Positions 3,515-63,249 of a stretch of 64,000 nt of DNA are shown here, in pieces. Numbering within the stretch: the first letter of the stretch is position 1; every line of letters starts with the position of its first letter. Origin of the DNA: an uncultured Gammaproteobacteria bacterium (GTDB lineage Bacteria; Patescibacteriota; Patescibacteriia; Magasanikbacterales; UBA922); assembly GCA_964345045.1 (NCBI GenBank), contig CAYFPM010000001.1, positions 236,215 through 300,214 on the forward strand, read 5' to 3'. Made by a program: the position numbers and the translations under genes. Below the pieces are notes generated by a model. It made no database searches. It was not told the DNA's origin and worked only from the letters and a program-made list of their open reading frames with translations.

Positions 3515-4291
3515 ATGGCACATTCCTACACACTCAAAGTAGTTGTGTCGGGAAAGCAGGTCGAAGTATTCAAATATAGCAAAGAAGTGTGGCGTGACTA
3601 TGACTCATCTCCAAAACAAGTCACTACTCAAAAGGAGTCCAAGCAATTAAACATGTTCGAACAAGAAGCACTGCGACAGAAAAAGGTGCAATATTCAATT
3701 AACCGAACGAAAACAGAGATACGCCGTCAAATTAACGCCAATCCGCAACTGAATAAGTTTATGACCCTGACTTTCGCCGACAACATCACTGACATCAAAA
3801 CTGCGAACTACATGTTTAATCAGTTTATTAAGCGTATCTCATATAAATACAAAAATTTCGAGTACTTTGCTGTACCTGAATTTCAAAAGCGTGGGGCTGT
3901 TCACTATCATGTGCTATGCAACCTACCATACATCGAAATGAACGTCTTAGAGTACGTTTGGGGGCATGGCATGGTAAATATCCGTAAAGTAGACGAAGTG
4001 AACAACCTCGGGGCGTACATGAGCAAATACTTAGGTAAAGAACTGTTCTCTGGTCGCATGTTTGGTAAAAAGAAATTCTTTCGTTCACAGTCCTTAAAAT
4101 CTCCTGTAGAGCTTCTTGCATGGTGGGCGAGAAAGTTTATTGAGAAGTTTCTTTCACTGCTCACACCAGTCTTTGAAAAGACGTTTGAGAGTGAATACAT
4201 GGGAGAGGTTGAGTACAAGGCGTATACGCTCGACTTTTTCCCGTCCAAGTGCAATGACCCGCAATGGTCGATAGTTTTTAATAACTCCTAA
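3515..4291 (+). CDS. Rolling-circle replication initiator (HUH endonuclease superfamily, phage Rep/gpA-like)
   Basis: HUH motif in GAVHYHVLCN. Two-tyrosine motif YMSKYLGKE (YxxKY). The likely start is the internal Met MAHSYTLK. The listed ORF starts at 3443. Confidence 0.65.
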   Translation: MAHSYTLKVVVSGKQVEVFKYSKEVWRDYDSSPKQVTTQKESKQLNMFEQEALRQKKVQYSINRTKTEIRRQINANPQLNKFMTLTFADNITDIKTANYMFNQFIKRISYKYKNFEYFAVPEFQKRGAVHYHVLCNLPYIEMNVLEYVWGHGMVNIRKVDEVNNLGAYMSKYLGKELFSGRMFGKKKFFRSQSLKSPVELLAWWARKFIEKFLSLLTPVFEKTFESEYMGEVEYKAYTLDFFPSKCNDPQWSIVFNNS

Positions 4292-4608: not shown

Positions 4609-6150
4609 TTGCATATGAAAAAACAACTACAACGAGGTGTCATCTATTACAGAGTATCGACAGCAGAACAGGCTGAACGTGGTTTTAGTTTGGAAAATCA
4701 ACGTGAGGCGTGTTTGCATTACGCAAAAAGCAAGGACATTGATGTGATAGGCGAATATCATGATGACGGAATTTCTGCAAAGACAACAAATCGCAAAGGG
4801 CTACAGAATATGCTCCAATTTTGTTCTACCAAAAGCAATAAGATTGATTGTGTGATTGTAAACAAGGTTGACCGCCTTTCTCGAGATGTGAATGATTACA
4901 CGAGTATTTTCACACAGCTCAAAGGGCGAGGTATCACGCTCATCTCTACCACGGAAGCAATAGACAATACACCATTTGGAAAGTGTGTCGGTAATATCAT
5001 GGCGACATTTGCACAGCTAGACAATGACATGCGAAGCGAGCGAGTCACGGCAGGAATGAAAAAATGTATTGAGTCTGGTCGCTGGCCGTTCAAGGCTCGC
5101 ATTGGGTATCTCAATTACACAGACGCAGACGGCAACAAAAGCATAATTGTTGATCACAAAAAAGCTCCATTGGTACGCTTCATTTTTGAAGAATATGCAA
5201 AAGGAGTATACACCGAGGAAGAAGTACGGCAACAAGTAAACGCCAAGGGATTGCGTTCATCGAATGGAAAAGAAGTATCTCCGCAGTTTATCCATAAAAT
5301 ACTCTCTGATAAATTCTATATCAGTATCATGACAATGAACGGCGTGGAATATCCAGCATCGCATGAGCCGATTATCCGCAATGAAACGTATTATCAGTGC
5401 CAAAAGTTCATGCGAAAGTACGACAAAAAGACAAACATGTCGCTCAAAAAGAAAAACGAGCTATTTCCGCTTAGAAATTTTGTATTGTGTGGAGAGTGTA
5501 GTCGTCCATTAACCGCTTCTTTGTCTACCAGTCATACAGGCAAGAAATTTCCATATTATCGGTGCTATAACAAAGAATGCACTGCTCCAAAGTCTCTCTC
5601 TAAGGACAGGCTAGAGAGTGAGTTTTTCGATTTTCTCAAAGAACTTGCACCAGACAAACGGTATCTCAAAGTTATACGACACATGGCTCTTGAACTATGG
5701 GAAAAGAAGTATAAAGAGATGAATGTAAGCAATGAACAAATACAGAGAGAAATTGACATACTCAAAGAGAAAAAAAGAAAGACCTTTGATCTGCTCGGCA
5801 AAGGTATTATTGATGATGAAGATTTCAAAGAAGAACTTGACCGCATTAAAGCCTCGATTCAAGATAAAGAAGAATTGCTACACCAAACACCCAAAGAAAA
5901 TTTTGACCTAGAGAAAGCAATGGATATGTGTTTTGATTTCTTTTTGGAAGTGCCTGAACATTGGCAAAAGGCGACCTACACAAAGAAAATACAACTTCAG
6001 AGTTCGATTTTTTCAAAAAAACCCTCGTACCATTATCCAAAATTTGGAACCCCTAATTTTTCGCTAATCTTTCAACAAAAAAGAGACTCTGCACATGCAA
6101 AATCCCTTTTGGTAGCCCGTAGGGGAATCGAACCCCTGTTCCCAGGATGA
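4609..6150 (+). CDS. Large serine recombinase (resolvase/invertase N-domain, recombinase domain and zinc ribbon). Candidate integrase of the element.
   Basis: N-terminus VIYYRVSTAEQAERGFSLENQRE carries the catalytic Ser motif. C-terminal half has Cys pairs LCGECSRPL...YYRCYN. The last 41 nt overlap the 3' end of tRNA-Glu on the opposite strand. Confidence 0.85.
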   Translation: MHMKKQLQRGVIYYRVSTAEQAERGFSLENQREACLHYAKSKDIDVIGEYHDDGISAKTTNRKGLQNMLQFCSTKSNKIDCVIVNKVDRLSRDVNDYTSIFTQLKGRGITLISTTEAIDNTPFGKCVGNIMATFAQLDNDMRSERVTAGMKKCIESGRWPFKARIGYLNYTDADGNKSIIVDHKKAPLVRFIFEEYAKGVYTEEEVRQQVNAKGLRSSNGKEVSPQFIHKILSDKFYISIMTMNGVEYPASHEPIIRNETYYQCQKFMRKYDKKTNMSLKKKNELFPLRNFVLCGECSRPLTASLSTSHTGKKFPYYRCYNKECTAPKSLSKDRLESEFFDFLKELAPDKRYLKVIRHMALELWEKKYKEMNVSNEQIQREIDILKEKKRKTFDLLGKGIIDDEDFKEELDRIKASIQDKEELLHQTPKENFDLEKAMDMCFDFFLEVPEHWQKATYTKKIQLQSSIFSKKPSYHYPKFGTPNFSLIFQQKRDSAHAKSLLVARRGIEPLFPG

Positions 6151-6184
6151 AAACCTGGTGTCCTAACCACTAGACGAACGGGCC
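6110..6184 (-). tRNA. tRNA-Glu (anticodon TTC), CCA encoded
   Basis: Reverse complement GGCCCGTTCGTCTAGTGGTTAGGACACCAGGTTTTCATCCTGGGAACAGGGGTTCGATTCCCCTACGGGCTACCA. The acceptor stem pairs, the anticodon loop is TTTTCAT and the T-loop is GGTTCGATTCC. Confidence 0.85.
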
Positions 6185-6185
6185 A

Positions 6186-6428
6186 TTAAATTATTCTCTT
6201 TAACAATTCTTCTTTTGTAGAACTGTGTTTTTTGAGTTTATTTTCTCTTTTTCTTGCTAAGCTCAATGTATTGTAAGCTTCGTAGTATACCAACTTCCAA
6301 GGTTTTTTTGTTTTTGTGTATTTTGATTTTCCCAAGTTGTGATCTTTAAATCTTTTTTTAAGATCACTTGTTGACCCAATATAATAAGTAAGATCTTTCT
6401 TACTTTGAATTACATATACGTAGTGCAT
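6186..6428 (-). CDS. GIY-YIG nuclease superfamily protein (YhbQ/UPF0213-like, about 80 aa)
   Basis: MHYVYVIQS...YYIGSTSDLKKRFKDHN...WKLVYYEAY..ARKRENKLKK. RBS AGGAGG lies 5 nt upstream of this Met. The listed ORF starts at 6470, but the extra N-terminal codons cover two tetraloop hairpins and a tRNA fragment. Confidence 0.7.
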   Translation of the reverse strand: MHYVYVIQSKKDLTYYIGSTSDLKKRFKDHNLGKSKYTKTKKPWKLVYYEAYNTLSLARKRENKLKKHSSTKEELLKRII

Positions 6429-6484
6429 ATACCCCTCCTGTAAAACATGGTGTCTGACCCTTCGGGTCATCAGCCGAAGGCTGG

Positions 6485-6514
6485 CTAACCACTAGACGAA
6501 CGGGCCATTAAATT
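6485..6514 (-). repeat. Duplicate of the first 22 nt of tRNA-Glu plus 8 nt of its upstream flank (direct repeat of 6163..6192)
   Basis: ctaaccactagacgaacgggccattaaatt occurs at both places. The copy is followed, on the minus strand, by hairpins CAGCC-TTCG-GGCTG and TGACCC-GAAG-GGGTCA. Confidence 0.8.
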
Positions 6515-8103: not shown

Positions 8104-8625
8104 ATGGCTAAGACAAGACAACAAAAAGAAGAAGCTGTACAAGGTTTGGCAACATCTATAAAAGATGCCAAAGCAGCAGTTTTTGCCAATTTTCAAGGTT
8201 TGAAAGTGTCTGAGTCCGAAGAACTTCGTGGCAAATGTAGAGAAAATAATATTTCTTACGTTGCTACCAAGAAAACCCTTTTGGGCAGAGCTCTAAAAGA
8301 AGCCGGATTAGAAGTAGACACCAAAACTTTCGAAGGTGGTGTGGCCACAATACTTGGGCAAGATGACGAAGTCGCTCCAGCCCAAATAATTGCTGACTTT
8401 GCCAAAGACCACGAACTAGTAACCATCTTTGGTGGTGTGCTAGAAGGTGAGTTTATTGACGCAGCCAAAGTAACAGAATTGTCCAAGCTTCCAAGCAAGC
8501 AACAATTGCTTGGTCAGTTGGTTGGCACATTGAACGCTCCAGTATCTGGATTTGTAAATGTACTTGCCGGCAATATGCGTGGACTAGTAAACGTCCTTAA
8601 CGGGATTAAAGAATCAAAAGCCTAA
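8104..8625 (+). CDS. rplJ: 50S ribosomal protein L10
   Basis: MAKTRQQKEEAVQGLA...FANFQGLKVSESEELRGKCRE...TKKTLLGRAL is the L10 family pattern. It is followed by rplL. Confidence 0.93.
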   Translation: MAKTRQQKEEAVQGLATSIKDAKAAVFANFQGLKVSESEELRGKCRENNISYVATKKTLLGRALKEAGLEVDTKTFEGGVATILGQDDEVAPAQIIADFAKDHELVTIFGGVLEGEFIDAAKVTELSKLPSKQQLLGQLVGTLNAPVSGFVNVLAGNMRGLVNVLNGIKESKA

Positions 8626-8628
8626 CCT

Positions 8629-8692
8629 TACCCCCTCAGTCCTTGCTCTACTTCGTGAGCTCGGACAGCTCCCCCTACTAGGGGGAGCAAAA
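8629..8692. repeat. GC-rich hairpin repeat, family F2 (CTCCCCCT-N4-AGGGGGAG core)
   Basis: cagctccccctactagggggagc with upstream ccttaccccctcagtccttgctctacttcgtgagctcgg. Related to the in-frame insert in uppP at 49655..49745 and to hairpins at 58377..58397. Confidence 0.5.
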
Positions 8693-8738
8693 GAAGAAAT
8701 ACTAATATAATTAGTTTAAATTCAATAACTTATATACT

Positions 8739-9179
8739 ATGAGTGAAGAAACACAAACTCCTGCAGTAGAGGAGAAAAAAGACGTAGAAGTACCTGCAAA
8801 ATTTAAATCTCTTGTAGAAGAGGTTGAAAAAATGTCTGTACTAGATTTGTCAGAACTTGTAAAAGTTCTAGAAGACAAATTTGGTGTTAGCGCTGCTGCT
8901 CCAGCTGCCATGATGATGGCTCCAGGAGCTGCTGCTGGTGGAGACGCTGGTGCTGCTGCCGAAGAAAAATCAGAATTCAATGTAGAACTTACAGATGCTG
9001 GTAGCAACAAAATTGCTGTTATCAAAGCTGTAAAAGCTGCTACTGGTTTGGGACTAGCAGATGCCAAAGCTTTGGTAGACGGTGCTCCAAAAGTAGTAAA
9101 AGAAAATGTAAAGAAAGAAGAAGCCGAAGAATTGAAAAAAGCTATCGAAGAAGCTGGTGGAAAAGCAGAACTAAAATAA
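8739..9179 (+). CDS. rplL: 50S ribosomal protein L7/L12
   Basis: MSEETQT...[22 protein letters not shown]..., an Ala/Gly hinge, then ...[13 protein letters not shown]. Confidence 0.95.
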
Positions 9180-12486: not shown

Positions 12487-12758
12487 ACCAACTTAAATTA
12501 AAAATTTTTGGCAAGGTACAAGGAGTTTTTTTTCGAGTAGAGTTGTGTAAATTTGCCAAGGAGCTTGGTATTTTTGGTTGGATAAAAAACGTCTCCGACG
12601 GCACAGTAGAGATTTTGGCAGAAGGCAGTACCAAAGACTTGAAAAAATTGGTAAAATGGTGTAGAGTTGGTCCTTCTTTATCACATGTAGATAGAGTAGA
12701 AGAAAAGTGGGAAAAAATAGAAAAATGCCAATTTAGCAAGTTTATAATATTAGAATAA
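12483..12758 (+). CDS. acyP: Acylphosphatase
   Basis: KIFGKVQGVFFRVELCKFAKELGIFGWIKNVSDGTVEILAEGS...GP is the acylphosphatase signature. Confidence 0.75.
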   Translation: MNQLKLKIFGKVQGVFFRVELCKFAKELGIFGWIKNVSDGTVEILAEGSTKDLKKLVKWCRVGPSLSHVDRVEEKWEKIEKCQFSKFIILE

Positions 12759-12781
12759 TTACAAATTTTAAATTTTTAATC

Positions 12782-12810
12782 AATTATAAATTTAATTAAA
12801 ATTTATAATT
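12782..12810. promoter_or_regulatory. Near-perfect AT palindrome upstream of the GT2 gene. Possible operator or promoter element.
   Basis: aattataaattt aatta aaatttataatt. The ATTATAAATTT motif recurs upstream of mscS at about 38648. Confidence 0.25.
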
Positions 12811-12819
12811 TAAAATTAA

Positions 12820-14307
12820 ATGATCTCAGATTATCATCGCTACAGACTATACGAAATATTACCGGGTTTATCTATCTGGCTGACTTTGTTTTTAGGGATA
12901 TTTCTTTCTTTTGTAAAACCACTTTGGATAATTTATTTTATTATTTTGTTCGATATTTATTGGGTATTAAAAATTTTTAATTTCTCTTTTTATCTTTTGG
13001 TAGCCTGGCGCAGAATGAGCATTACCTTAAAGACGGATTGGTTTGGTAAACTAAAAGAAATTAGAGGCTGGGAAGAAAAAGAACATCTTGTTTTTTTGAC
13101 CGTGTTTAACGAAGAATGGGGGGTGGTAAAAACAGCCATTAGCAGTGTGGCCGATGCTGTTTATGACAAGAAAAAATTTACTTTGGTAGTAGCTGGTGAA
13201 GAAAGAAAAAAGGAACATTGTTTGGAAATAATAGAAAAAACCAAAGCAGAATTTGGAGACAAATTTGAAAAAATAATTGGGACGATCCACCCCAAAGATC
13301 TACCGGGAGAAATACCAGGCAAAGGATCAAACTTGCATTATGCCGAAAGACAAGTAAAAGAATATGTAGACAAAAAAGGTTGGAAATACAAAGATGTAAT
13401 TGTTACGGTTTTTGATATAGACACTGTTTGCCACAGAGAATATTTTAATTATTTGACGTATCTGTATTGCACTCACAAAAATCCAACTAGAACTTCTTTT
13501 CAACCAGTAGCGCTTTATAACAATAATATGTGGGAGTCCCCATCGGTACTTCGTGTAATGGCTTTTGGTACCACTTTTTGGCTTATGACAGCTCTGGCCA
13601 GACAAGATGCTCTTGTAACTTTTTCTTCTCATTCTATGAGTTTCGAAGCTTTGGTGGCTGCTGGTTTTCATGAAAAAAGAATTGTAAGTGAGGACTCTAG
13701 GATTTTTTATCAAGCTTTTTTGGCTTACAATGGCAAGTACGAAGTAACCCCAATGTATATACCAGTATCTATGGATACTGTACGAGATGATAATTGGTGG
13801 CAAAGTATGAAAAATCTTTATCTGCAACAGAGACGTTGGGCCTGGGGAGTAGAACATGTGCCATATCTACTTTGGGAATTTCGCAAAAAAGGCAAAAAAA
13901 TTGCTTGGTGGAAAAAATTTAAATGGGTGTTTATAGAATGGGAAGGCAAGTGGTCTTGGTCTTTGGTAGCAATTATGATTACTTTTTTCCCCAGATTACC
14001 TATGTGGGTGGCCTCGGATTCTGTCAATCAAAGTGCTTTGTTTTTCAATGCTCCACATTTGATTCAGGTGATTATTACCGGTTCTATGATAGGCATGCTT
14101 TTGTCGGCAATGTTTAGTTTTCCGCTTTTGCCAAAGCGGCCAAAATCTCATCCCAAGCATCGTTATATCACTATGCTTTTGCAGTGGCTGCTTTTGCCAA
14201 TCTCTCTTATTTTCGTTAGTGCTATACCGGCCATTGATGCTGTAACTCATCTTATGTTTGGTAAATATCTTGGTTTTAATATCTCGCAAAAGAAAAGAGC
14301 GAATTAA
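12820..14307 (+). CDS. Membrane-bound family-2 glycosyltransferase with QxxRW motif (processive beta-glycan synthase-like)
   Basis: N- and C-terminal TM helices. A D-x-D-like FDIDTV motif. The QQRRWAWG (QxxRW) motif. Confidence 0.75.
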   Translation: MISDYHRYRLYEILPGLSIWLTLFLGIFLSFVKPLWIIYFIILFDIYWVLKIFNFSFYLLVAWRRMSITLKTDWFGKLKEIRGWEEKEHLVFLTVFNEEWGVVKTAISSVADAVYDKKKFTLVVAGEERKKEHCLEIIEKTKAEFGDKFEKIIGTIHPKDLPGEIPGKGSNLHYAERQVKEYVDKKGWKYKDVIVTVFDIDTVCHREYFNYLTYLYCTHKNPTRTSFQPVALYNNNMWESPSVLRVMAFGTTFWLMTALARQDALVTFSSHSMSFEALVAAGFHEKRIVSEDSRIFYQAFLAYNGKYEVTPMYIPVSMDTVRDDNWWQSMKNLYLQQRRWAWGVEHVPYLLWEFRKKGKKIAWWKKFKWVFIEWEGKWSWSLVAIMITFFPRLPMWVASDSVNQSALFFNAPHLIQVIITGSMIGMLLSAMFSFPLLPKRPKSHPKHRYITMLLQWLLLPISLIFVSAIPAIDAVTHLMFGKYLGFNISQKKRAN

Positions 14308-14308
14308 T

Positions 14309-15778
14309 ATGATTCATTACAAAAACAAAAAAAGAAAAAAATGGCCATTTGTACTTTTGGCTTTTGTCTTGCTTTTGAGTGGGTTTGCTTTTTTTGTCTG
14401 GAGATTTGCTGGGACCCTGAATCCAGAAAAGATTTTGAATTTACCAGTGGTAAGACAAGAAGCAGAAAATATATTTGGAGGAGATACAGATTTTATTTAT
14501 AAATTACTACCACATTTTTTGGGCTTTTCAGAACCAAGAACAGTCTTGTTGCTTTTTCAAAATAATACCGAGCTTAGACCTTCCGGAGGTTTTATTGGTA
14601 GTTATGCCACGGTAAGAATAAACAAAGGGAAAGTAGATATCTTGAGAGTAGAAGGAAGTGAAAATTTGGATTGGCAAGCTCCAGATGATTGGATAGTAGA
14701 AGCACCAAGCATTTTAAAAGAAGAATTAAAAGTAGAAAAATGGTATTTTCGCGATAGCAATTGGTCGCCAGACTTTGTAGAGAGCGCCAAAAAAGCATTA
14801 GAATTTTATATAGCCGAAGGTGGGGTAGTTGGAGAAGAAATAGACACTGTAATCGCTATAACCCCGACTGTTTTGGAAAAAATGCTGGAATTATCTGGTT
14901 CGGTTATAGTAGATGGAATTGAATTTGATAATAATAATGTAACTGAAAAATTGGAATACGAAGTAGAATTTGGTTTTCGAGATAGAGGTATTCCTGTAGG
15001 AGAGAGAAAACAAATTATTGGTAGATTTATGTCGGTATTATTAAAAGAATTATCTAGTAATGCTTTTTCCAAAGGGTCTCAATACTTTGGAGAATTTAAG
15101 AAATTGGCAGAAGAAAAACATATTTTAGCTTTTAGCAAAAAAGAAGCTTTGCAAAATATTTTTGATGAAGAAGATTTGTCTGGTCGAGTAAAAGATTTTA
15201 GCGGGGACTACCTAATGTGGGTGGATGCCAATTTGGCAGCTCTAAAAACTGACCATGCGATTGAGAGAGAAGTTAGTTATAAAATTTTATCTTTGGAAAA
15301 TGATGCCGTGACCGCCTCGACCAAAATGACCTACAATCATACAGGGGAGTTTGACTGGCGTACCAGTAGATACAGAACTTATGCTAGATTGTATGTGCCA
15401 AATGGGGCCAAGCTTTTGGGTGTAAAACTTAATGGCAATGAAGAAAAATTTATAGATAGCAAAGTAGATACTGGCACAGAGTTGGGCAAGACCTGGTTTG
15501 GATATTTTACAGTTGTAGAACCAGGACAGATTGGTTCGGTCGAGTTTGTTTATGAATTGCCTAAACTCGTATTCGATAGCATAGATAATGGGGAGTACAA
15601 ATTATTTGTTCAAAAGCAGCCTGGCACAATTGAGCCAAAATTGACGCTAGACCTTAATTTTGATAAACCTATTACAGGGGCCAGCCCAGCAGAAGCAGAA
15701 AATGAGTGGGGCGATAGCTCTTACAAGCTAGAAACAAACCTTAGGGAAGATAGAGAGTTTGGAGTAGAACTGAAATAA
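14309..15778 (+). CDS. DUF4012-like membrane-anchored protein
   Basis: The internal Met at 14309 overlaps the GT2 stop. N-terminal TM (WPFVLLAFVLLLSGFAFFVW). ELRPSGGFIGSYATV motif. Co-located with a glycan synthase. Confidence 0.55.
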   Translation: MIHYKNKKRKKWPFVLLAFVLLLSGFAFFVWRFAGTLNPEKILNLPVVRQEAENIFGGDTDFIYKLLPHFLGFSEPRTVLLLFQNNTELRPSGGFIGSYATVRINKGKVDILRVEGSENLDWQAPDDWIVEAPSILKEELKVEKWYFRDSNWSPDFVESAKKALEFYIAEGGVVGEEIDTVIAITPTVLEKMLELSGSVIVDGIEFDNNNVTEKLEYEVEFGFRDRGIPVGERKQIIGRFMSVLLKELSSNAFSKGSQYFGEFKKLAEEKHILAFSKKEALQNIFDEEDLSGRVKDFSGDYLMWVDANLAALKTDHAIEREVSYKILSLENDAVTASTKMTYNHTGEFDWRTSRYRTYARLYVPNGAKLLGVKLNGNEEKFIDSKVDTGTELGKTWFGYFTVVEPGQIGSVEFVYELPKLVFDSIDNGEYKLFVQKQPGTIEPKLTLDLNFDKPITGASPAEAENEWGDSSYKLETNLREDREFGVELK

Positions 15779-16847: not shown

Positions 16848-16852
16848 TTAAT

Positions 16853-16934
16853 GTACGAATTACGAATTTTACGAATGTACGAATTTTTAAAATTTAGTTA
16901 ATTCGCATATTCGCGATATTTGTAATTCGTACAT
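16853..16934. repeat. Palindromic array of TACGAAT/ATTCG units, family F3, copy A
   Basis: gtacgaattacgaattttacgaatgtacgaattttt aaaatttagtt aattcgcatattcgcgatatttgtaattcgtacat. A closely related copy lies at 63175..63249. Confidence 0.7.
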
Positions 16935-16939
16935 ATCTT

Positions 16940-17554
16940 ATGATTAAAGCAATCTTTTTTGATTTTGATGGAGTACTAACTTTGCATGGGTATGGTGGTT
17001 TTACGATTGTAAAAAATTTGGTGGCTCAAACTGGAGTAACAGAAGAAAAGATCAAAATTTGCTGGGAGCATTTTAAAAAAGATTTGAAAATAGGTAATGT
17101 AGAGTACAAAGATATGTGGCAAGAATTTTGTACTTGCCTTGGCAAAAAGATCGATATTAGCGTACTCGAATTTGTAAATAAAAACGTGCCACTAAATATT
17201 AAAATGATAGAGTTGGTTCGTAAGTTGCACGAGGCTGGTTACAAAACCGGAATTATTTCTTCCAACATAAAAGAAAGAATGGACGCGATTAGAGAAGAAT
17301 TTGGTCTCGATAATATTTTTGACACTTATTCTATTTCTAGTGATTTGCACAGCGACAAAAAAGATACCATGATTTTTGAAAAAGCTTTGCAAGATTTGTC
17401 TGTAGAAGTAGAAGAATCTGTGTTTATAGATAATCATGCTGTGAATCTTGTAGTTCCAGAAAAAATGGGTTTCAAAACCTACTTTTTTGATCATGAAAAA
17501 AATGATGTGGAGGCTTTTGTAAAACAATTAGAAATATGGGGAGTAAAAGTATAA
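16940..17554 (+). CDS. HAD-superfamily hydrolase
   Basis: The N-terminal IKAIFFDFDGVLT is HAD motif I. Confidence 0.8.
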   Translation: MIKAIFFDFDGVLTLHGYGGFTIVKNLVAQTGVTEEKIKICWEHFKKDLKIGNVEYKDMWQEFCTCLGKKIDISVLEFVNKNVPLNIKMIELVRKLHEAGYKTGIISSNIKERMDAIREEFGLDNIFDTYSISSDLHSDKKDTMIFEKALQDLSVEVEESVFIDNHAVNLVVPEKMGFKTYFFDHEKNDVEAFVKQLEIWGVKV

Positions 17555-18828
17555 CAATTGGTATAGACGTTAGCCGTGCCAACGAGGATGAAAAAACCGG
17601 AGTAGGTTGGTATGCTTGGCATCTTATTGAAAATTTAAAGAAACAAGAAACAAGAAACAAGGGGCCAAAGGGTGAAGATGTTTTTTTTATTGTTTATTCT
17701 CGGGAATCTTTGAAAGGGGAGTTAGCCAAACTTCCAGAAAATTGGAGTAACAAAGTTTTGCACTGGCCACCAAAAAGATTTTGGACACAAATCAGACTTA
17801 GTCTTGAGATGTTATTTAGTCCGCCAGATGTTCTTTTTGTGCCAGCTCATGTTTTTCCAATTATTCATCCCAAAAAAACTATTATGACAGTCCACGATGT
17901 GGCTGCATTAAAATTTTCAAAAAGTTATAATTGGTTTGAACGTTGGTATACAATTTGGTCTGCCAAGACAGCGTTAAAAAAACTTTGGAAGGTGATTGTG
18001 CCGAGTGAATTTACAAAAGGAGAAGTCCTTAAAACATTAAAACTTGAAAACATTAAAACAAATAAAATAAAAGTAGTACAACATGGGTATGATAAGAGGT
18101 ACAGAAAGATTGAGACTGATAATGAGATTGAGATTAATAAAGTTTTGAACAAATATAATATAAAAAAACCGTTCTTACTTTCTGTCGGTCGGTGGGAAGA
18201 AAAGAAAAATACGGCTAGGCTGATTGAATCTTTTGACACCCTATGTCATCTTGAGCGAAACGAACGACCGCAGGGAGAGAGTGAAGTCGAAAGATTTGTC
18301 ACTGGATCAAATTCAAAATCAGAACAGATTTCTCCACTTCATCCCGATTACGCTTCGCTACATCGGGATTACGGTCGAAATGACAATAATAGCAACTTAC
18401 AACTTGTGTTGGTGGGTAAACCTGGTCATGGTTACGAAAAGGTAGAGGAAGCCTTGGAAAAAAGTCCTAACAAAAAAGATATAATAATGCCTGGTTATGT
18501 AGATGTAGAAGATTTGGTTTATTTAATGAATGCGGCCGAGGCATTTGTATTCCCCAGTTTGTACGAGGGATTTGGCTTGCCAGTTTTGGAAGCTCTGGCA
18601 ACAGGTACTCCTGTGGTGGCTAGCAAGGGTACTAGTTTGGAAGAAGTAGGTGGAGAAGCTTGTGTTTATGTAGATCCGATATCGGTAGAGAGTATTGCAA
18701 AGGGGATTAATATGGCTTTGGGAGATAGCCAAAAGAGAAAGGCGAAAAGCGAAAAAGGACTGGAGAGAGTCAAGGATTTTTCTTGGGAAAAATGTGCAGA
18801 GGAGACACTCAAAGTTATCCTATCTTGA
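17536..18828 (+). CDS. Family-4 glycosyltransferase (GT4) carrying an in-frame repeat-element insertion
   Basis: The C-terminal EAFVFPSLYEGFGLPVLEALATGTPVV is the GT4 signature. An extra roughly 45-aa segment, ERNERPQGESEVERFVTGSNSKSEQISPLHPDYASLHRDYGRNDNNSN, sits between the two Rossmann halves. Confidence 0.8.
   Translation: MGSKSITIGIDVSRANEDEKTGVGWYAWHLIENLKKQETRNKGPKGEDVFFIVYSRESLKGELAKLPENWSNKVLHWPPKRFWTQIRLSLEMLFSPPDVLFVPAHVFPIIHPKKTIMTVHDVAALKFSKSYNWFERWYTIWSAKTALKKLWKVIVPSEFTKGEVLKTLKLENIKTNKIKVVQHGYDKRYRKIETDNEIEINKVLNKYNIKKPFLLSVGRWEEKKNTARLIESFDTLCHLERNERPQGESEVERFVTGSNSKSEQISPLHPDYASLHRDYGRNDNNSNLQLVLVGKPGHGYEKVEEALEKSPNKKDIIMPGYVDVEDLVYLMNAAEAFVFPSLYEGFGLPVLEALATGTPVVASKGTSLEEVGGEACVYVDPISVESIAKGINMALGDSQKRKAKSEKGLERVKDFSWEKCAEETLKVILS
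18245..18385. repeat. Degenerate copy of hairpin repeat family F1 inserted in-frame in the GT4 gene
   Basis: tgtcatcttgagcgaaacgaacga...agtgaagtcgaaagat aligns with the F1 consensus agtcatcctgagcgtaagcgaagga...agtggaagtccgaagagat. Confidence 0.5.
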
Positions 18829-20549: not shown

Positions 20550-21013
20550 TAGGCAGGAGGCAGTAGAGTTAGGGCTGAGGCAATAGGCAACAGGGAGTAA
20601 TTTATTTTTAATTTAGGAGGGTATGTCTAAAATAGAATCTTATAAAGATTTAATTGTTTGGCAAAAGGCCATCAGCCTAGTAGAGGAAATTTATTTACAA
20701 ACAAGTTTTTTGCCGAAAGAAGAATTATATGGGCTTTCGAGTCAAATGAGAAGATGTGCCGTGTCTATCCCGTCAAATATTGCAGAAGGATATAGACGTA
20801 GGTCAACAGGGGACTATGCCAGGTTTTTATCGATTGCCGATGGTTCAGCCGCAGAATTAGAAACCCAATTAATAATTGCAAATAAAATATATAAAAATAT
20901 TAATTTAGAAAAGAGTTTTTCAATTTTAGAAGAAATCCAAAAAATACTATTTACTATCATTAAAAAACTAAGAGCGTAGGAATACTGTTGCCTTTTGCCT
21001 CCTGCCTAACCCC
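20550..21013. repeat. Inverted repeats flanking the four-helix-bundle gene (IVS-like cassette outside rRNA)
   Basis: Left: gtaggcaggaggca...aggcaacag. Right: ctgttgcctttt gcctcctgcctaac. They are complementary and would form a long stem enclosing the ORF. The motif GGCAGGAGGCA recurs in the 61352..61399 hairpin. Confidence 0.55.
20623..20979 (+). CDS. Four-helix-bundle protein (the family usually encoded in 23S rRNA intervening sequences)
   Basis: IVWQKAISLVEEIY...LSSQMRRCAVSIPSNIAEGYRR...FLSIADGSAAELETQLIIA is the TIGR02436-type pattern. Confidence 0.75.
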   Translation: MSKIESYKDLIVWQKAISLVEEIYLQTSFLPKEELYGLSSQMRRCAVSIPSNIAEGYRRRSTGDYARFLSIADGSAAELETQLIIANKIYKNINLEKSFSILEEIQKILFTIIKKLRA

Positions 21014-26851: not shown

Positions 26852-27322
26852 ATGAAAGTGGTATTGCAACGAGTAAAAAGAGCATCCGTAGAAATATCAG
26901 GTGAATTTGATACAGAGGTCGTCGGTTCTATCGCCGACGGCTTTGTTTTATTGTTGGGTATTACTCATGCAGATACAGAAAAAGAGGCTGATTGGTTGGT
27001 AAACAAAATTTTGAATTTAAAACTTTTTGCAAAAGATGGTAGTGAAAGTTTTATGGATTCTAGTATAGAAGATGTTGGTGGAGCCATATTAATAGTTTCT
27101 CAGTTTACACTGTATGGAGACACTAGAAAGGGAACCAAGCCAAGTTTTTCCGAAGCCGCTAGGCCAGAACAAGCCACAAAATTATATGATTATTTTGTAA
27201 ATAAAATGATTGAATCAGGTTTACATATAGAGACCGGGAGGTTTGGTGCTCACATGGAGGTGGACTTGGTAAACGATGGGCCGATTACTTTGATACTTGA
27301 CACAGACAAAAAGAATCTATAA
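26852..27322 (+). CDS. dtd: D-aminoacyl-tRNA deacylase
   Basis: MKVVLQRVKRASV...SQFTLYGDTRKGTKPSF...GPITLIL is the Dtd signature. Confidence 0.9.
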   Translation: MKVVLQRVKRASVEISGEFDTEVVGSIADGFVLLLGITHADTEKEADWLVNKILNLKLFAKDGSESFMDSSIEDVGGAILIVSQFTLYGDTRKGTKPSFSEAARPEQATKLYDYFVNKMIESGLHIETGRFGAHMEVDLVNDGPITLILDTDKKNL

Positions 27323-27465
27323 TATATATATTGCAGTGATACAGGGTGGCATCTGTGGAGCAACTACAAACCTAAAGAGTCTCCCAAAGGGAGGAAACTG
27401 GGTGGAACCGCTCCGACAACGTCGGAGTCCCAGACCGCAAACAATGCTGGTCTTTTTTTATTGTA
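27323..27465 (+). promoter_or_regulatory. Probable T-box leader (glycine-specific) upstream of glyQS
   Basis: AACTGGGTGGAACCGCT matches the T-box core AATTAGGGTGGTACCGCG. A candidate specifier GGC followed by A lies at 27348..27351. Downstream are the hairpin ctccgac aac gtcggag and the weak terminator agacc..ggtct ttttttt. Confidence 0.4.
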
Positions 27466-27479
27466 ATAATATAACAACA

Positions 27480-27551
27480 GTCATCCTGAGGTAAAACCGA
27501 AGGATCTCATTGGAAGTCCGAAGAGATTCTTCCCTGTCGCTTAGAATGACT
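27480..27551. repeat. Hairpin repeat family F1, copy 1
   Basis: gtcatcctgag gtaaaaccgaaggatctc attggaagtccgaag agattcttccctgtcgc ttagaatgact. Confidence 0.7.
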
Positions 27552-27561
27552 TATAAAACAT

Positions 27562-30383: not shown

Positions 30384-30477
30384 AGTCATCCTGAGCAAAG
30401 TGAGCTTAAAAGGCGAACGCCGTCGAAGGATCTCTTCGGACTTCCACTGAGATTCTTCGCTGACGCTCAGAATGACT
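30384..30477. repeat. Hairpin repeat family F1, copy 2 (central loop inverted relative to copy 3)
   Basis: agtcatcctgagc ... cgaaggatctc ttcggacttccactgag attcttcgc tgac gctcagaatgact. The loop is the reverse complement of the copy-3 loop. Confidence 0.7.
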
Positions 30478-30509
30478 TTTACAAATTAGTCATTTAATTA
30501 CAAAACAAT

Positions 30510-45832: not shown

Positions 45833-45851
45833 GTGCGCGCCGAGGGAATCT
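45833..45851. repeat. Direct repeat of the 3' end of tRNA-Val, about 145 nt from the gene
   Basis: tgtgcgcgccgagggaatc versus cgtgcgcgccgagggattc at the tRNA 3' end. Confidence 0.6.
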
Positions 45852-45995
45852 CACTCGCTTCGCTCTCACGAAAACCTTCGGGTTTTCGTGGACTTTCCTC
45901 GGCATGTAAGGGGCTCTGCCCCTTACCATCCCCGGTTCGAATCCCTGTGCACTTACAAAACAAAAAAACCACCATCTGGTGATTTTTTTATTTCG

Positions 45996-55140: not shown

Positions 55141-55878
55141 ATGGATTTTTCCAAGTTAAAGAATTTAAAACTAAAAGCAGGCGAATTACCAGATCCCTTT
55201 CTTGATTTGGTCAGGAGTGAAAGTGGGATGCATAAATTTTCAGTTTTTGTTTATTACACCAGTATGGTTGTGTTGATAGTTATAGCGGTCTATAATTTTT
55301 TTACTGGTAGAGATTATTCTAATTTGATCATGCCTGGTTTGGTTTTTTTGGCAGCGTATTTTGGTGGTCAACTCACTTTGCGTAGAGCTTACAAAAAAGG
55401 AGAAGACCTACTAACAAAGGACTCTAAAATTGTTTTAGCGTCTATTGTGCAGGCAAATAATAAATTATTTTCTGCGCCAGAGTATGGAGAATATCCAGCT
55501 GTGGTAGTTTATTCGATGTCTGAGGAAAGGCGTTTTGACGAAGAATGGCTAACAAAAACAGCCGATAAAATATTTGATATAAGAAATAAAAAACCTGAGA
55601 CCAAAGGTGAAAAATATATTTATAGTAAACTTAATGACGAACATAGCTTTTTCAAAAATGAAAAAGTTCCAATAGATGTGATACCTGAAGCAGAAACGTA
55701 TTGGAGTGTAGAATTGATATTTGCTTCAGATTTGTCTAGGTCTTTCTTTTTTGATGATAGAAAGATAATACCCTATATAGCAAAAACCAGACAAGACGAA
55801 GACAAAACTGGTTATGAGCCACATTTGTGGGAGATCGTGCCAAAAGCTTTGTGGCCTGGACAGCATGATGTGAAATAG
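55141..55878 (+). CDS. Hypothetical membrane protein in the heat-shock cluster
   Basis: Two N-terminal TM helices. No recognised domain. Confidence 0.55.
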   Translation: MDFSKLKNLKLKAGELPDPFLDLVRSESGMHKFSVFVYYTSMVVLIVIAVYNFFTGRDYSNLIMPGLVFLAAYFGGQLTLRRAYKKGEDLLTKDSKIVLASIVQANNKLFSAPEYGEYPAVVVYSMSEERRFDEEWLTKTADKIFDIRNKKPETKGEKYIYSKLNDEHSFFKNEKVPIDVIPEAETYWSVELIFASDLSRSFFFDDRKIIPYIAKTRQDEDKTGYEPHLWEIVPKALWPGQHDVK

Positions 55879-55900: not shown

Positions 55901-55972
55901 AGTCATCCTGAGCGTAAGCGAAGGATCTCAGTGGAAGTCCGAAGAGATCCTTCGCTTACGCTCAGGATGACT
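55901..55972. repeat. Hairpin repeat family F1, copy 3 (perfect 29-bp stem)
   Basis: agtcatcctgagcgtaagcgaaggatctc agtggaagtccgaag agatccttcgcttacgctcaggatgact. Confidence 0.8.
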
Positions 55973-56019: not shown

Positions 56020-57948
56020 ATGAGTAAAATTCTCGGAATTGACCTAGGTACTACCAACTCTGCAATGGCTATTACAGAAGGTGGTCAACCAAAAGTACTA
56101 GAAAACAAAGAGGGAAACAGAACCACTCCATCTATGGTGGCTGTGGGCAAATCTGGCGAAAGATTGGTAGGGCAACTAGCCAAGCGCCAAGCGGTAACCA
56201 ACCCCAAGAATACTTTGTATTCTGTAAAACGTCTTATTGGTCGCAAGGCCAATGACAAAGAAGTGGATTTGGTAAAAGAACATGTCCCATTTGAGGTAGT
56301 CCCAGATGGCGACAGAGTAAAAGTAAAAATGAACGATAAAGATTATACTGCTCCGGAAATATCGGCTATGGTTTTGCAAAAACTAAAAGCAGATGCCGAA
56401 GAAAAAACTGGTGAAAAAATCACTCAAGCTGTAATTACAGTACCAGCTTACTTCGATGATTCTCAACGCCAGGCTACCAAACATGCCGGTGAAATTGCCG
56501 GGCTAGAAGTGCTTCGTGTAATCAACGAACCAACTGCGGCTGCTTTTGCCTACGGATTTGATAAAAAAGATGACCAACAAATTGTAGTATACGATTTGGG
56601 TGGTGGTACTTTTGATGTGTCTGTACTAGATATTTCTCACGATGCCGAAGACGGCCACTCTACTGTAGAAGTAAAAGCTACCAATGGAGACACTCACTTG
56701 GGTGGAGACGACTTTGATAAAAAGATTATCGAGTGGATCTTAGAAGAGTTTAAAAAGAGCGAAGGGGTAGACCTAAGTTCTGATCCACTATCACTCCAAC
56801 GTGTAAAAGACGCTGCCGAAAAAGCTAAGATAGAATTGTCTAGTACTCCGGAAAGTGAAATTAATGAACCATTTATTACCAGCACAGCTGACGGTCCAAA
56901 ACATTTGAATATAAAACTATCTCGCGCCAAGATGGAAGAGCTAGTAGGCGAGCTAGTAGAAAAAACCATGGGCCCAGTGAAAAAAGCGATTGAAGACGCT
57001 GGGATGAGTAAAGGAGACATTGACGAAGTAATTATGGTAGGTGGCATGACTCGTATGCCACTAGTACAAAAAAAGGTAGAAGAATTTTTTGGCAAAAAGC
57101 CAAATGCTAGTGTAAACCCAGACGAAGTCGTATCTATCGGAGCGGCTATCCAAGCTGGTCAGTTGCAAGGTGACCTGGGCAAAGATATTTTGCTACTAGA
57201 CGTAACTCCACTTTCACTAGGTATCGAAATCATGGGAGGAGTTTGTACCAAACTGATTGAAAGAAACACCACTATTCCAACTAGCAAATCTCAGGTGTTT
57301 TCTACTGCTGCAGATAGTCAACCTAGCGTAGAGATTCATGTACTACAAGGTGAACGTGAGATGGCTGCCGACAATAAATCTCTTGGTAGATTTATGCTAG
57401 ACGGTATCCCACCAGCTCCACGTGGTGTACCACAGATCGAAGTTAAATTCGATATCGATGCCAATGGTATTGTAAATGTATCTGCCAAAGACAAAGGCAC
57501 TGGCAAAGAACAATCTATTCGGATTGAAGCCAGCAGTGGACTAAGCGAAGACGAAATTGAAAAAATGAAAAAAGACGCCGAAGCCCATGCCGACGAAGAC
57601 AAGAAAAAACGCGAAATGATTGATGTAAAAAATACTGCCGACACCATGATTTATACTACGGAAAAAATGATGAAAGATGTAGAAGAGAAAAAGATTGAAG
57701 TTACTGATGAAGAAAAGAAAAAAGTAGAAGATGGCCTAGCCGCTATAAAAGCTGCTTTGGAAAAAGAAGATATAGAAGAAATTAAAAAGACTTCTGAAGA
57801 GCTTTCTAAAGATGCTCAGGCTGTGGGTATGAAACTTTATCAATCTGAGCAGGCTGCTTCGCAGCAAGGTGGTGAAGAACCAAAGGCTGAAGAAAAAGGT
57901 GAAGATGGTTCTGTAGAGGGAGAAGTGGTTGATGAAGATAAACAATAA
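56020..57948 (+). CDS. dnaK: Molecular chaperone DnaK (Hsp70)
   Basis: [12 protein letters not shown]...[12 protein letters not shown]...[15 protein letters not shown] are the canonical Hsp70 motifs. Confidence 0.97.
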
Positions 57949-63162: not shown

Positions 63163-63174
63163 AAGATTATTTAT

Positions 63175-63249
63175 GTGCGAATTACGAATATTGCGAATTT
63201 ACGAATTTTATTTTATTCGCATATTCGTGCGATTCGCAATTCGCACATT
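63175..63249. repeat. Palindromic TACGAAT/ATTCG array, family F3, copy B
   Basis: gtgcgaattacgaatattgcgaatttacgaatttta ttttattcgcatattcgtgcgattcgcaattcgcacat. Confidence 0.7.

Follow-up and report, generated by a model that had tools for sequence, protein, structure and literature searches.

The closest described counterparts of the element considered here are two kinds of short bacterial palindromes. The superfamily of repetitive extragenic palindromic (REP) sequences carrying a CGTC tag was defined in 2013 and includes variants with a TGTC tag and stems starting with AT (Di Nocera, BMC Genomics, PMC3733652). Its members lie mostly downstream of coding regions, predominantly as head-to-head homodimers or heterodimers with spacers of 20-100 bp, and intragenic in-frame copies encode 20-80 amino acids (aa); dRS3 falls in family CGTC-1, the Rickettsia repeats RPE-4 and RPE-6 are also members, and the 2013 survey found such REPs in 5 phyla, mostly in alpha-Proteobacteria, with no associated enzyme or dedicated transposase known (PMC3733652). 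The second counterpart is the target of SsnA, a 94-aa single-domain GIY-YIG protein that binds the folded NTS hairpin as single-stranded DNA only and cuts a few nucleotides upstream of it, whereas double-stranded DNA and RNA are not acted upon (Chenal et al., Nat Commun 2025, PMC11893778). For cleavage, the three nucleotides preceding the NTS palindrome are important, and for binding the most important position is the C directly behind it; Ssn homologs across phyla are flanked by Ssn-related motifs (SRMs), and the NTS-ssnA-NTS arrangement resembles an insertion sequence (IS), the choice between 'IS-like' and 'domesticated' being left open in that paper, which does not mention Patescibacteria (PMC11893778). 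Here, we analyzed a stretch of 64,000 nt (hereafter, the window) from contig CAYFPM010000001.1, assigned by GTDB to Patescibacteriota, order Magasanikbacterales, a lineage of the candidate phyla radiation (CPR), and containing a family of dispersed hairpins. These hairpins are genuine and represent recent insertions of a palindromic repeat of a kind already known from bacteria, here in a CPR genome; they are not ordinary terminators. Based on their anatomy, covariation and distribution, the association with GIY-YIG genes in other genomes, and the absence from relatives, the window probably carries four copies of a REP-type palindromic repeat of the CGTC/TGTC-tagged superfamily with an Ssn-type GIY-YIG partner.

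The four copies occupy the following positions in the window.

27479..27552, no strand: copy 1 (c1), a head-to-head dimer of two GTC-tagged hairpin units (from the sequence and a repeat finder), with the left unit at 27476-27511 (+, C/G type) and the right unit at 27520-27554 (-, T/A type)
30384..30477, no strand: copy 2 (c2), a head-to-head dimer of 94 nt (from the sequence and a repeat finder), with the left unit at 30388-30432 (+) and the right unit at 30446-30480 (-)
55901..55972, no strand: copy 3 (c3), a head-to-head homodimer with both units of the C/G type (from the sequence and a repeat finder)
18244..18388, + strand: GT4 copy, a degenerate dimer of ~145 nt lying in frame in the open reading frame (ORF) of a GT4 glycosyltransferase (17536-18828)

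The three intergenic copies had been proposed in an earlier, sequence-only reading of the window, and both our reading of the sequence and the repeat finder confirm them, with the start of c1 moved to 27479. The repeat finder likewise bears out that c3 is a perfect 29-bp inverted repeat, which surrounds a 14-nt loop (AGTGGAAGTCCGAA); its RNA fold reaches -59.7 kcal/mol (z = -13.8), and a contig from a sibling sample carries the identical sequence, including the loop orientation. Copies c1 and c2 are imperfect, their arms differing at two positions (C/G type on the left, T/A type on the right), and are hence heterodimers. The loop of c1 is ATTGGAAGTCCGAA, whereas c2 has TTCGGACTTCCACT, which is the c3 loop in reverse complement, and the left unit of c2 has an apex longer by ~22 nt that holds a mini-hairpin of its own, GGCGAACGCC. 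The fourth copy, which the earlier reading had placed inside GT4, is indeed there, although as a diverged relative of ~145 nt encoding ~LCHLERNERPQGESEVERFVTGSNSKSEQISPLHPDYASLHRDYGRNDN; its tag is TGTC, compared with AGTC in the intergenic copies. Within the window, the 13-mer AGTCATCCTGAGC occurs 8 times with up to two mismatches, against 0.78 expected, a number that 0 of 100 shuffles reached.

Each arm of these hairpins is a directional hairpin unit of ~27 nt, (T/A)GTC-ATYCT-GA-GC-GNA-GC-GA-AGRAT-CTC, in which a 5-bp stem (ATYCT/AGRAT) is followed by a tandem G.A/A.G, a GC/GC step and a GNA triloop, with an unpaired GTC tag on the 5' side and an unpaired C on the 3' side; the nine stacked stem positions accordingly read A-T, T-A, Y-R, C-G, T-A, G.A, A.G, G-C and C-G. 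For a covariation test and a covariance model, we used 97 distinct units, all from other genomes. Among these, all 7 Watson-Crick pairs have changed on both sides with 94% of the cells still pairing; the covariation score was matched by 0 of 500 shuffles, and slid controls were only 19-52% paired. G13 and A14 are invariant, and conservation is 90% or more at G22, A23, C29 and the GTC tag (columns 5-7). The Y/R position covaries inside a single arm (T-A 98, C-G 83, G-C 6, non-pairs 3), and this persists where the two arms of a dimer disagree, as they do in c1 and c2. The apical N of GCGNAGC is C in 41, A in 33, G in 14 and T in 14 cases; the modal loop is 3 nt (GNA), with longer apices being common. 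In the larger set of 556 units, the base preceding GTC is T in 453, C in 77, G in 16 and A in 10, and the tail is CTC, TC following ATC in 425 of ~556.

The covariance model matched both arms of c3 (right unit, E = 1e-7; left unit, E = 9.2e-7), of c2 (right, E = 1.1e-6; left, E = 0.69) and of c1 (left, E = 1.4e-5; right, E = 0.022), as well as the GT4 copy (left unit 18241-18274, +, E = 0.0012; right unit 18362-18388, -, E = 3.1), and the scan returned nothing else convincing in the window. Since a model made from foreign units matches their arms, the window elements are head-to-head dimers of the small directional unit. Rfam reported only tRNAs at its gathering thresholds in the window and, around c1 at E <= 1, only the T-box.

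Judged by sequence comparison, the copies are lineage-specific insertions, being absent from syntenic relatives at three of the four sites. The source is a Candidatus Magasanikbacteria genome, and the syntenic relatives (L122, L123 and L124) have glycyl-tRNA synthetases (GlyRS) that are 80-86% identical. Whereas the covariance model finds 8 units in ~82 kb of the source genome (the part covered by the unit scans, out of at least 621 kb), it finds 0 in 62 kb of the relatives. At the c1 site, L123 has the T-box terminator, ~30 nt and the ATG of glyQS, with no hairpin, whereas in the window 19 and 10 nt flank c1. At the c2 site, the spacer between the M16 peptidase and TIM genes is 65 nt long without a unit in L124 and holds a different cassette in L122. 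The GT4 protein has 430 aa in the window against 369-386 aa in three orthologs, and the alignment places a window-only insert of 41-45 aa in it. The earlier suggestion of a dispersed family resembling REPs or miniature transposable elements with inverted repeats (MITEs), as opposed to conserved terminators, is therefore upheld by the absence of the repeats both from the dtd/T-box-glyQS leader and from the M16-TIM spacer of the relatives, and by the lack of the insert in the GT4 orthologs. An apparent relic of a solo unit after the M16 stop codon in L123 was not backed by the covariance model and was set aside.

The M16-TIM spacer of L122 deserves a comment of its own. Exactly at the position that c2 takes in the window, it carries (12711-13126) a 23S_rRNA_IVP gene, coding for a bAvd-like four-helix bundle, with a 16-nt inverted repeat (GGGATTAGGTGGTTAG / CTAACCACCTAATCCC) on its two sides; a gene of the 23S_rRNA_IVP type also occurs in the window, away from c2, at 20623-20979. 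Small genes of this sort seem to be mobile cassettes with hairpins around them.

The arm unit extends far beyond the window, which likewise supports a dispersed family. A gapped pattern taken from one arm, GTCATYCTGAGC-N(0-14)-CGAAGRATCTC, matched more than 120 viral stretches, and on viral contigs the motif TGTCATYCTGAGCGNAGCGAAGRATCTC occurs alone, in inverted pairs with very different spacers, and in arrays. The exact 27-mer GTCATYCTGAGCGNAGCGAAGRATCTC was found in at least 120 stretches of GTDB species genomes (one genome per species), compared with ~0.001 matches expected by chance according to our own arithmetic. The matches listed come from ~15 phyla and include Chloroflexota, Acidobacteriota, Nitrospirota (Nitrospirales), Saccharibacteria, Omnitrophota, Bacteroidota (Bacteroidales and a cultured Pedobacter), Planctomycetota, Verrucomicrobiota, alpha-, gamma- and delta-Proteobacteria, Clostridia, Gemmatimonadota, Abditibacteria and others. 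The 120 listed GTDB loci hold 278 units, which form 94 head-to-head dimers (spacers of 4-155 nt) and leave 91 single units. Across 240 loci, adjacent units are head to head in 144 cases, tail to tail in 30 and head to tail in 27, and 63 of the 144 head-to-head dimers have heterotypic arms. By contrast with the arms, the spacer of the window copies is private to this genome, because both loop-specific scans came back empty (GATCTCANTGGAAGTCCGAAGAGAT had 0 matches in JGI metagenomes and TGGAAGTCCGAAGAGATYCTTC had 0 in GTDB species genomes). A literature search with the arm sequence as a string returned PCR primers only. Separately, the viral contig L061 carries at 8546-8969 a tandem array of five heterodimers with a period of 87-88 nt, in which the 14-16-nt spacers differ between neighbours, and which could pass for a CRISPR-like array in naive repeat finders.

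In other genomes, the unit is repeatedly associated with one gene. Inverted units 250-600 nt apart enclose an ORF for a GIY-YIG protein of ~95 aa in a Chloroflexota genome (L179), in Pedobacter (L204), in locus L240 and on a viral contig (L111), and further GIY-YIG genes flanked by units were found at L246-L255 and L257. A protein search with the enclosed ORF gave at least 8000 candidates. The best matches listed are ~80% identical and come from Deltaproteobacteria, Binatia and NC10; three of the top ones sit between bioA and bioD, each bracketed by inverted units. A copy on a Planktothrix plasmid is 77% identical and has heterodimers around the gene, and a Spirosoma copy is accompanied by a variant unit, GTCATCCCGAGGAACGAGGGATC. 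The bracketed protein has Pfam GIY-YIG (PF01541) as its sole domain and shares 49% identity (E = 3e-18) with the product of a Neisseria gonorrhoeae ssnA homolog; NCBIfam names for the GIY-YIG proteins were not informative. The Neisseria gene is itself flanked by the canonical NTS, CGTCATTCCCGCGMAVGCGGGAATCYRG, several of them in head-to-head pairs. As a side observation, the bioA-bioD insertion of the Ssn-type GIY-YIG cassette is kept at that spot in several metagenomes (L246-L255), where annotated ORFs sometimes run into the unit and acquire the C-terminus ...RRDSSLRSE.

The window itself has a single candidate for a cognate nuclease.

6186..6428, - strand: 80-aa single-domain GIY-YIG gene (Pfam GIY-YIG call), a putative cognate nuclease

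Its product shares 38% identity (E = 1e-10) with the N. gonorrhoeae ssnA homolog that NTS repeats flank and 32% with a unit-flanked Ssn homolog. The surroundings of this gene are peculiar in their own right: it lies 1 nt upstream of a tRNA-Glu gene and is preceded by a 30-nt direct copy, AATTTAATGGCCCGTTCGTCTAGTGGTTAG, of the 5' part of that tRNA. The relative L124 has, at 14470-14950, a 50%-identical GIY-YIG gene of 78 aa, located 2 nt upstream of a tRNA-Thr gene and preceded by a partial copy of the tRNA-Thr 5' part and a GC-rich structured stretch. From the sequences, both loci (6110-6510 in the window) look like a GIY-YIG cassette that may target tRNA genes and restore the tRNA 5' end.

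These observations can be joined into one account. Two ~27-nt units standing head to head around a short spacer make up the long hairpins of the window; each unit folds, as a single strand, into a compact hairpin, and the partner would be a member of the Ssn family of single-domain GIY-YIG nucleases of ~95 aa. Either strand of such a symmetric dimer has a forward unit on its 5' side. In the Candidatus Magasanikbacteria genome, the elements have inserted into two intergenic spacers, a 5' untranslated region (UTR) and, in frame, a surface loop of GT4; and because only the spacer reveals the orientation of a dimer, the loop of one copy would appear flipped. An Ssn-type nuclease may act on the window copies, and either such a nuclease or host replication and repair may spread them.

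Several results weigh against this account. The 6186-6428 gene is the only GIY-YIG gene in the ~82 kb, is divergent and has no adjacent units, and the relative with the 50%-identical gene has no units; when the window was searched by tblastn with three Ssn proteins whose genes units flank, no match was obtained, and the ~82 kb contain no unit-flanked Ssn gene. The published SRM pattern, HGTCWYN(0-2)YYVSBRHN(0-5)WNVSBRGN(0-2)RNCYNB, is passed by NTS and failed both by the consensus units and by all six window arms, with 0 matches in the window. The 3-nt loop of the unit departs from the 4-5 nt described for CGTC REPs, and the AGTC tag of the window is a rare variant (10 of 556 units). The literature gives no mechanism for the multiplication of SRM or CGTC repeats. 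Finally, the ORF next to c3 is an orphan, and the comparison with relatives covers three of the four sites.

Would the hairpins not be better explained by their RNA? The sequence-only reading had allowed that they double as terminators, and in a stronger form of this idea they would be Rho-independent terminators of the ordinary kind, or hairpins that stabilise mRNA, which are conserved along with their genes and resemble one another through common function only. Their setting is compatible with it, as each of the three intergenic hairpins occupies a short spacer separating co-directional genes, at 12-160 nt from the preceding stop codon (c2 begins 12 nt past that of the M16 peptidase gene and ends 33 nt before the TIM ATG, and c3 stands between the 245-aa ORF at 55141-55878 and dnaK at 56020), and their RNA folds are very stable, from -29 to -60 kcal/mol. 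However, a T-run is lacking after every copy, a terminator scan calls none of them, and none has the make-up of an intrinsic terminator, in which a GC-rich stem-loop runs straight into a U-tract where the transcription unit ends. Copy c1 comes after the terminator of the T-box (~27428-27460) and 10 nt before the ATG (27562) of the only glyQS gene, whereas c3 is inside the hrcA-grpE-ORF-dnaK-dnaJ string; one further copy is within coding sequence, the hairpins are missing at the orthologous sites of relatives, and covariation backs folding inside each arm, not the long stem. We regard this explanation as highly improbable. Effects of the hairpins at the RNA level are possible, but these would not be the reason why the sequences exist. 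Equally poor are the prospects of classical MITEs, that is, deletion derivatives of an IS with a DDE transposase, whose terminal inverted repeats would be the arms. Although the copies are short and dispersed with inverted ends, show presence/absence polymorphism and, in most other genomes, begin TG...CA, no target-site duplication is visible at c1-c3, about one-third of the units are single, each arm has an internal covarying hairpin, the ~95-aa GIY-YIG gene is the only one repeatedly enclosed, and no full-length element with these ends around a DDE transposase was seen in ~240 loci. REPINs in the strict sense, which are doublets of GTAG-type REPs mobilised by RAYT (an IS200/IS605-like HUH tyrosine transposase), have the same anatomy of small palindromic units, inverted doublets with a spacer, singleton remnants and single-strand hairpins; in these, the two inverted REPs and their spacer form a long hairpin and presumed replication unit, with singletons as decay products (PMC3116915). 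They nonetheless have hardly any chance of being the answer here, given that the tag is (T/C/A)GTC and not GTAG, that the gene bracketed in at least 8 independent loci encodes a GIY-YIG nuclease and not a Y1 transposase, and that a 27-mer identical over ~15 phyla contrasts with the vertical, lineage-specific inheritance of REPIN/RAYT. The tagged REP with an Ssn-type partner is the reading that we retain.

How the loop of c2 came to be flipped is less clear-cut. As stated in the sequence-only reading, c2 carries in its centre 17 nt (CTCTTCGGACTTCCACT) that match the corresponding 17 nt of c3 (AGTGGAAGTCCGAAGAG) exactly when reverse-complemented, to which we add the ~22 extra nucleotides in the left arm of c2; reverse-complemented, c2 is identical to c3 at 69 of 72 aligned positions, compared with 61 of 72 in direct orientation. 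That reading took this as insertion in opposite orientations, and it is still the simplest interpretation: since the two strands of a head-to-head dimer differ in the spacer only, the picture observed would arise whichever way round the element had inserted. The arms do not corroborate it, however, as c3, being a perfect palindrome, carries no orientation information in its arms, and c1 and c2 share the same arm order on the + strand (a C/G unit followed by a T/A unit) despite opposite loops. A flip of the loop in situ, or independent compensatory changes within the units, fits equally well. Hairpin loops flanked by inverted repeats are known to undergo small inversions, as is familiar from non-coding hairpins of plastids, and recombination between the arms, or template switching from one to the other, could have turned the 14-nt loop where it stands. 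We consider this unlikely, if a serious contender: the shared arm order that speaks for it involves only two informative copies and is expected by chance in 50% of cases, the missing polarity of c3 tells nothing in its favour, the sibling contig has the c3 loop in the same orientation, and the loops of neighbouring dimers in other genomes are co-oriented in 21 cases versus 1 flipped (Omnitrophota locus L133), although many of these are tandem copies. With only two copies to go by, the choice between a flip and opposite-orientation insertion of a symmetric dimer amounts to a coin toss.

A bolder proposal is that the CTGAGCGNAGCGAAG-class unit and its ~95-aa GIY-YIG partner constitute a selfish element that spreads horizontally across phyla, the dimers being non-autonomous derivatives that actively transpose. 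Partner proteins that are, among the matches listed, ~80% identical between Deltaproteobacteria, Binatia, NC10 and Cyanobacteria are a relevant observation, and we put the proposal forward as tentative, with the odds against it. If it were true, the window would give a direct picture of Ssn-type transposition that took place recently in a minimal CPR genome, with copies inserted both ways round, one of them in a 5' UTR under riboswitch control, and with in-frame exonisation in a glycosyltransferase.

What is new here is a sequence class and a host range inside a known kind of system; the repeat family is real, non-random and mobile-element-like. The comparison places an unexplained CPR hairpin family within the recently characterised Ssn/SRM system and offers clean presence/absence cases in which repeats have inserted into spacers, a 5' UTR and coding sequence. 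It also makes apparent that a whole sequence class, and a very widespread one, escapes the published SRM search pattern, although the class is present in ~15 phyla among the matches listed and on viral contigs; a pattern that admits the G.A tandem is, for example, HGTCRYNYYGAN(2-25)GARRNRYC. For annotation, a word of caution follows, namely that such hairpins should not be labelled as terminators. The unit presumably also explains the recurrent spurious peptides of the VILSEAKNL or ILRFAQND type in metagenome bins, which is consistent with its translations. For enzymology, the hairpin and its nuclease would, as far as their sequences tell, represent a new and strongly conserved pair and candidate tools for single-stranded DNA.

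The leader in which c1 resides merits description, as does the rest of the neighbourhood.

27201..27435, + strand: T-box leader of glyQS (Rfam RF00230, 32.5 bits, E = 1.5e-5, below the 93-bit gathering threshold)

The whole short glycine T-box leader spans 27201-27460, with a clear T-box/antiterminator sequence and a terminator, and a promoter-like site (10/12) at 27297-27325 overlaps the end of dtd. Because c1 is downstream of the riboswitch terminator, it lies in the read-through 5' UTR of an essential gene. In the grpE-dnaK gap, the 245-aa ORF has no homolog other than itself at E <= 1e-20 in a collection of 5.8 billion proteins, and together with c3 it breaks the usual adjacency of grpE and dnaK. 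A second, unrelated palindromic family, ATGTRCGAATTACGAAT...ATTCGYACAT, made of octamers containing TTCG/CGAA, has two intergenic copies of ~80 nt at 16851-16934 and 63173-63248. The first ~6150 nt of the window, next to tRNA-Glu, contain genes for a Zot-like ATPase (2167-2871) and for a rolling-circle replication protein of the REP_ORF2-G2P type (~3515-4291), together with an ArdcN-like gene and one for a large serine recombinase (~4615-6150); the cluster has the look of an inovirus-like or other single-strand DNA element that has integrated into a CPR genome. Lastly, a tRNA-like segment of ~122 nt at 45833-45955 (+), called by neither ARAGORN nor Rfam, has a 5' end like that of the neighbouring tRNA-Val (GTGCGCGCCGAGGGA), a T-arm (GGTTCGAATCC) and a pairing acceptor end. 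Behind it comes a terminator-like hairpin that is bidirectional and shared; the segment could represent a pseudogene or else a tRNA that is interrupted or unusually long.

The element can be set beside the known systems. With REPIN/RAYT (Bertels and Rainey 2011), it shares the inverted doublet whose spacer closes a long hairpin, whereas the GTAG tag, the HUH Y1 transposase and lineage-specific vertical inheritance of the former are replaced here by a GTC tag, a GIY-YIG nuclease and a 27-mer identical across phyla. The d(GCGNAGC) mini-hairpin, reportedly described by Hirao and colleagues in the 1990s as an extraordinarily stable DNA structure, has exactly the sequence of the unit apex, which fits folding as single-stranded DNA, although it is a biophysical observation and no repeat family. 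Closer are the CGTC REPs, which have in common with the unit a GTC-type tag, a stem of 8-9 positions starting with A-T and T-A, a short unpaired tail, a predominance of head-to-head dimers including heterodimers, a position that is mostly downstream of genes, and an in-frame intragenic copy (here in GT4); the differences are that two of the nine stem positions are G.A pairs and that the tail is CTC instead of CCA, with only the first C in common. From the Ssn/SRM system, the element is set apart by its stem, CTGAGCGNAGCGAAG with a tandem G.A and a GNA triloop as opposed to CCCGCG-MAV-GCGGG in NTS, by its Patescibacteria/CPR host, and by the absence of a unit-flanked ssn gene from the ~82 kb of the source genome. 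The resemblance is otherwise extensive: both are directional hairpin repeats with a 5' GTC(AT) tag, a palindrome of the form AT...AT and a conserved C thereafter, both occur in hundreds of copies, in clusters and in inverted pairs, and in other genomes the units stand as inverted repeats on both sides of a single-domain GIY-YIG gene of ~94 aa. The conserved GTC tag of the unit and the C after its stem match the determinants of cleavage and binding reported for SsnA.

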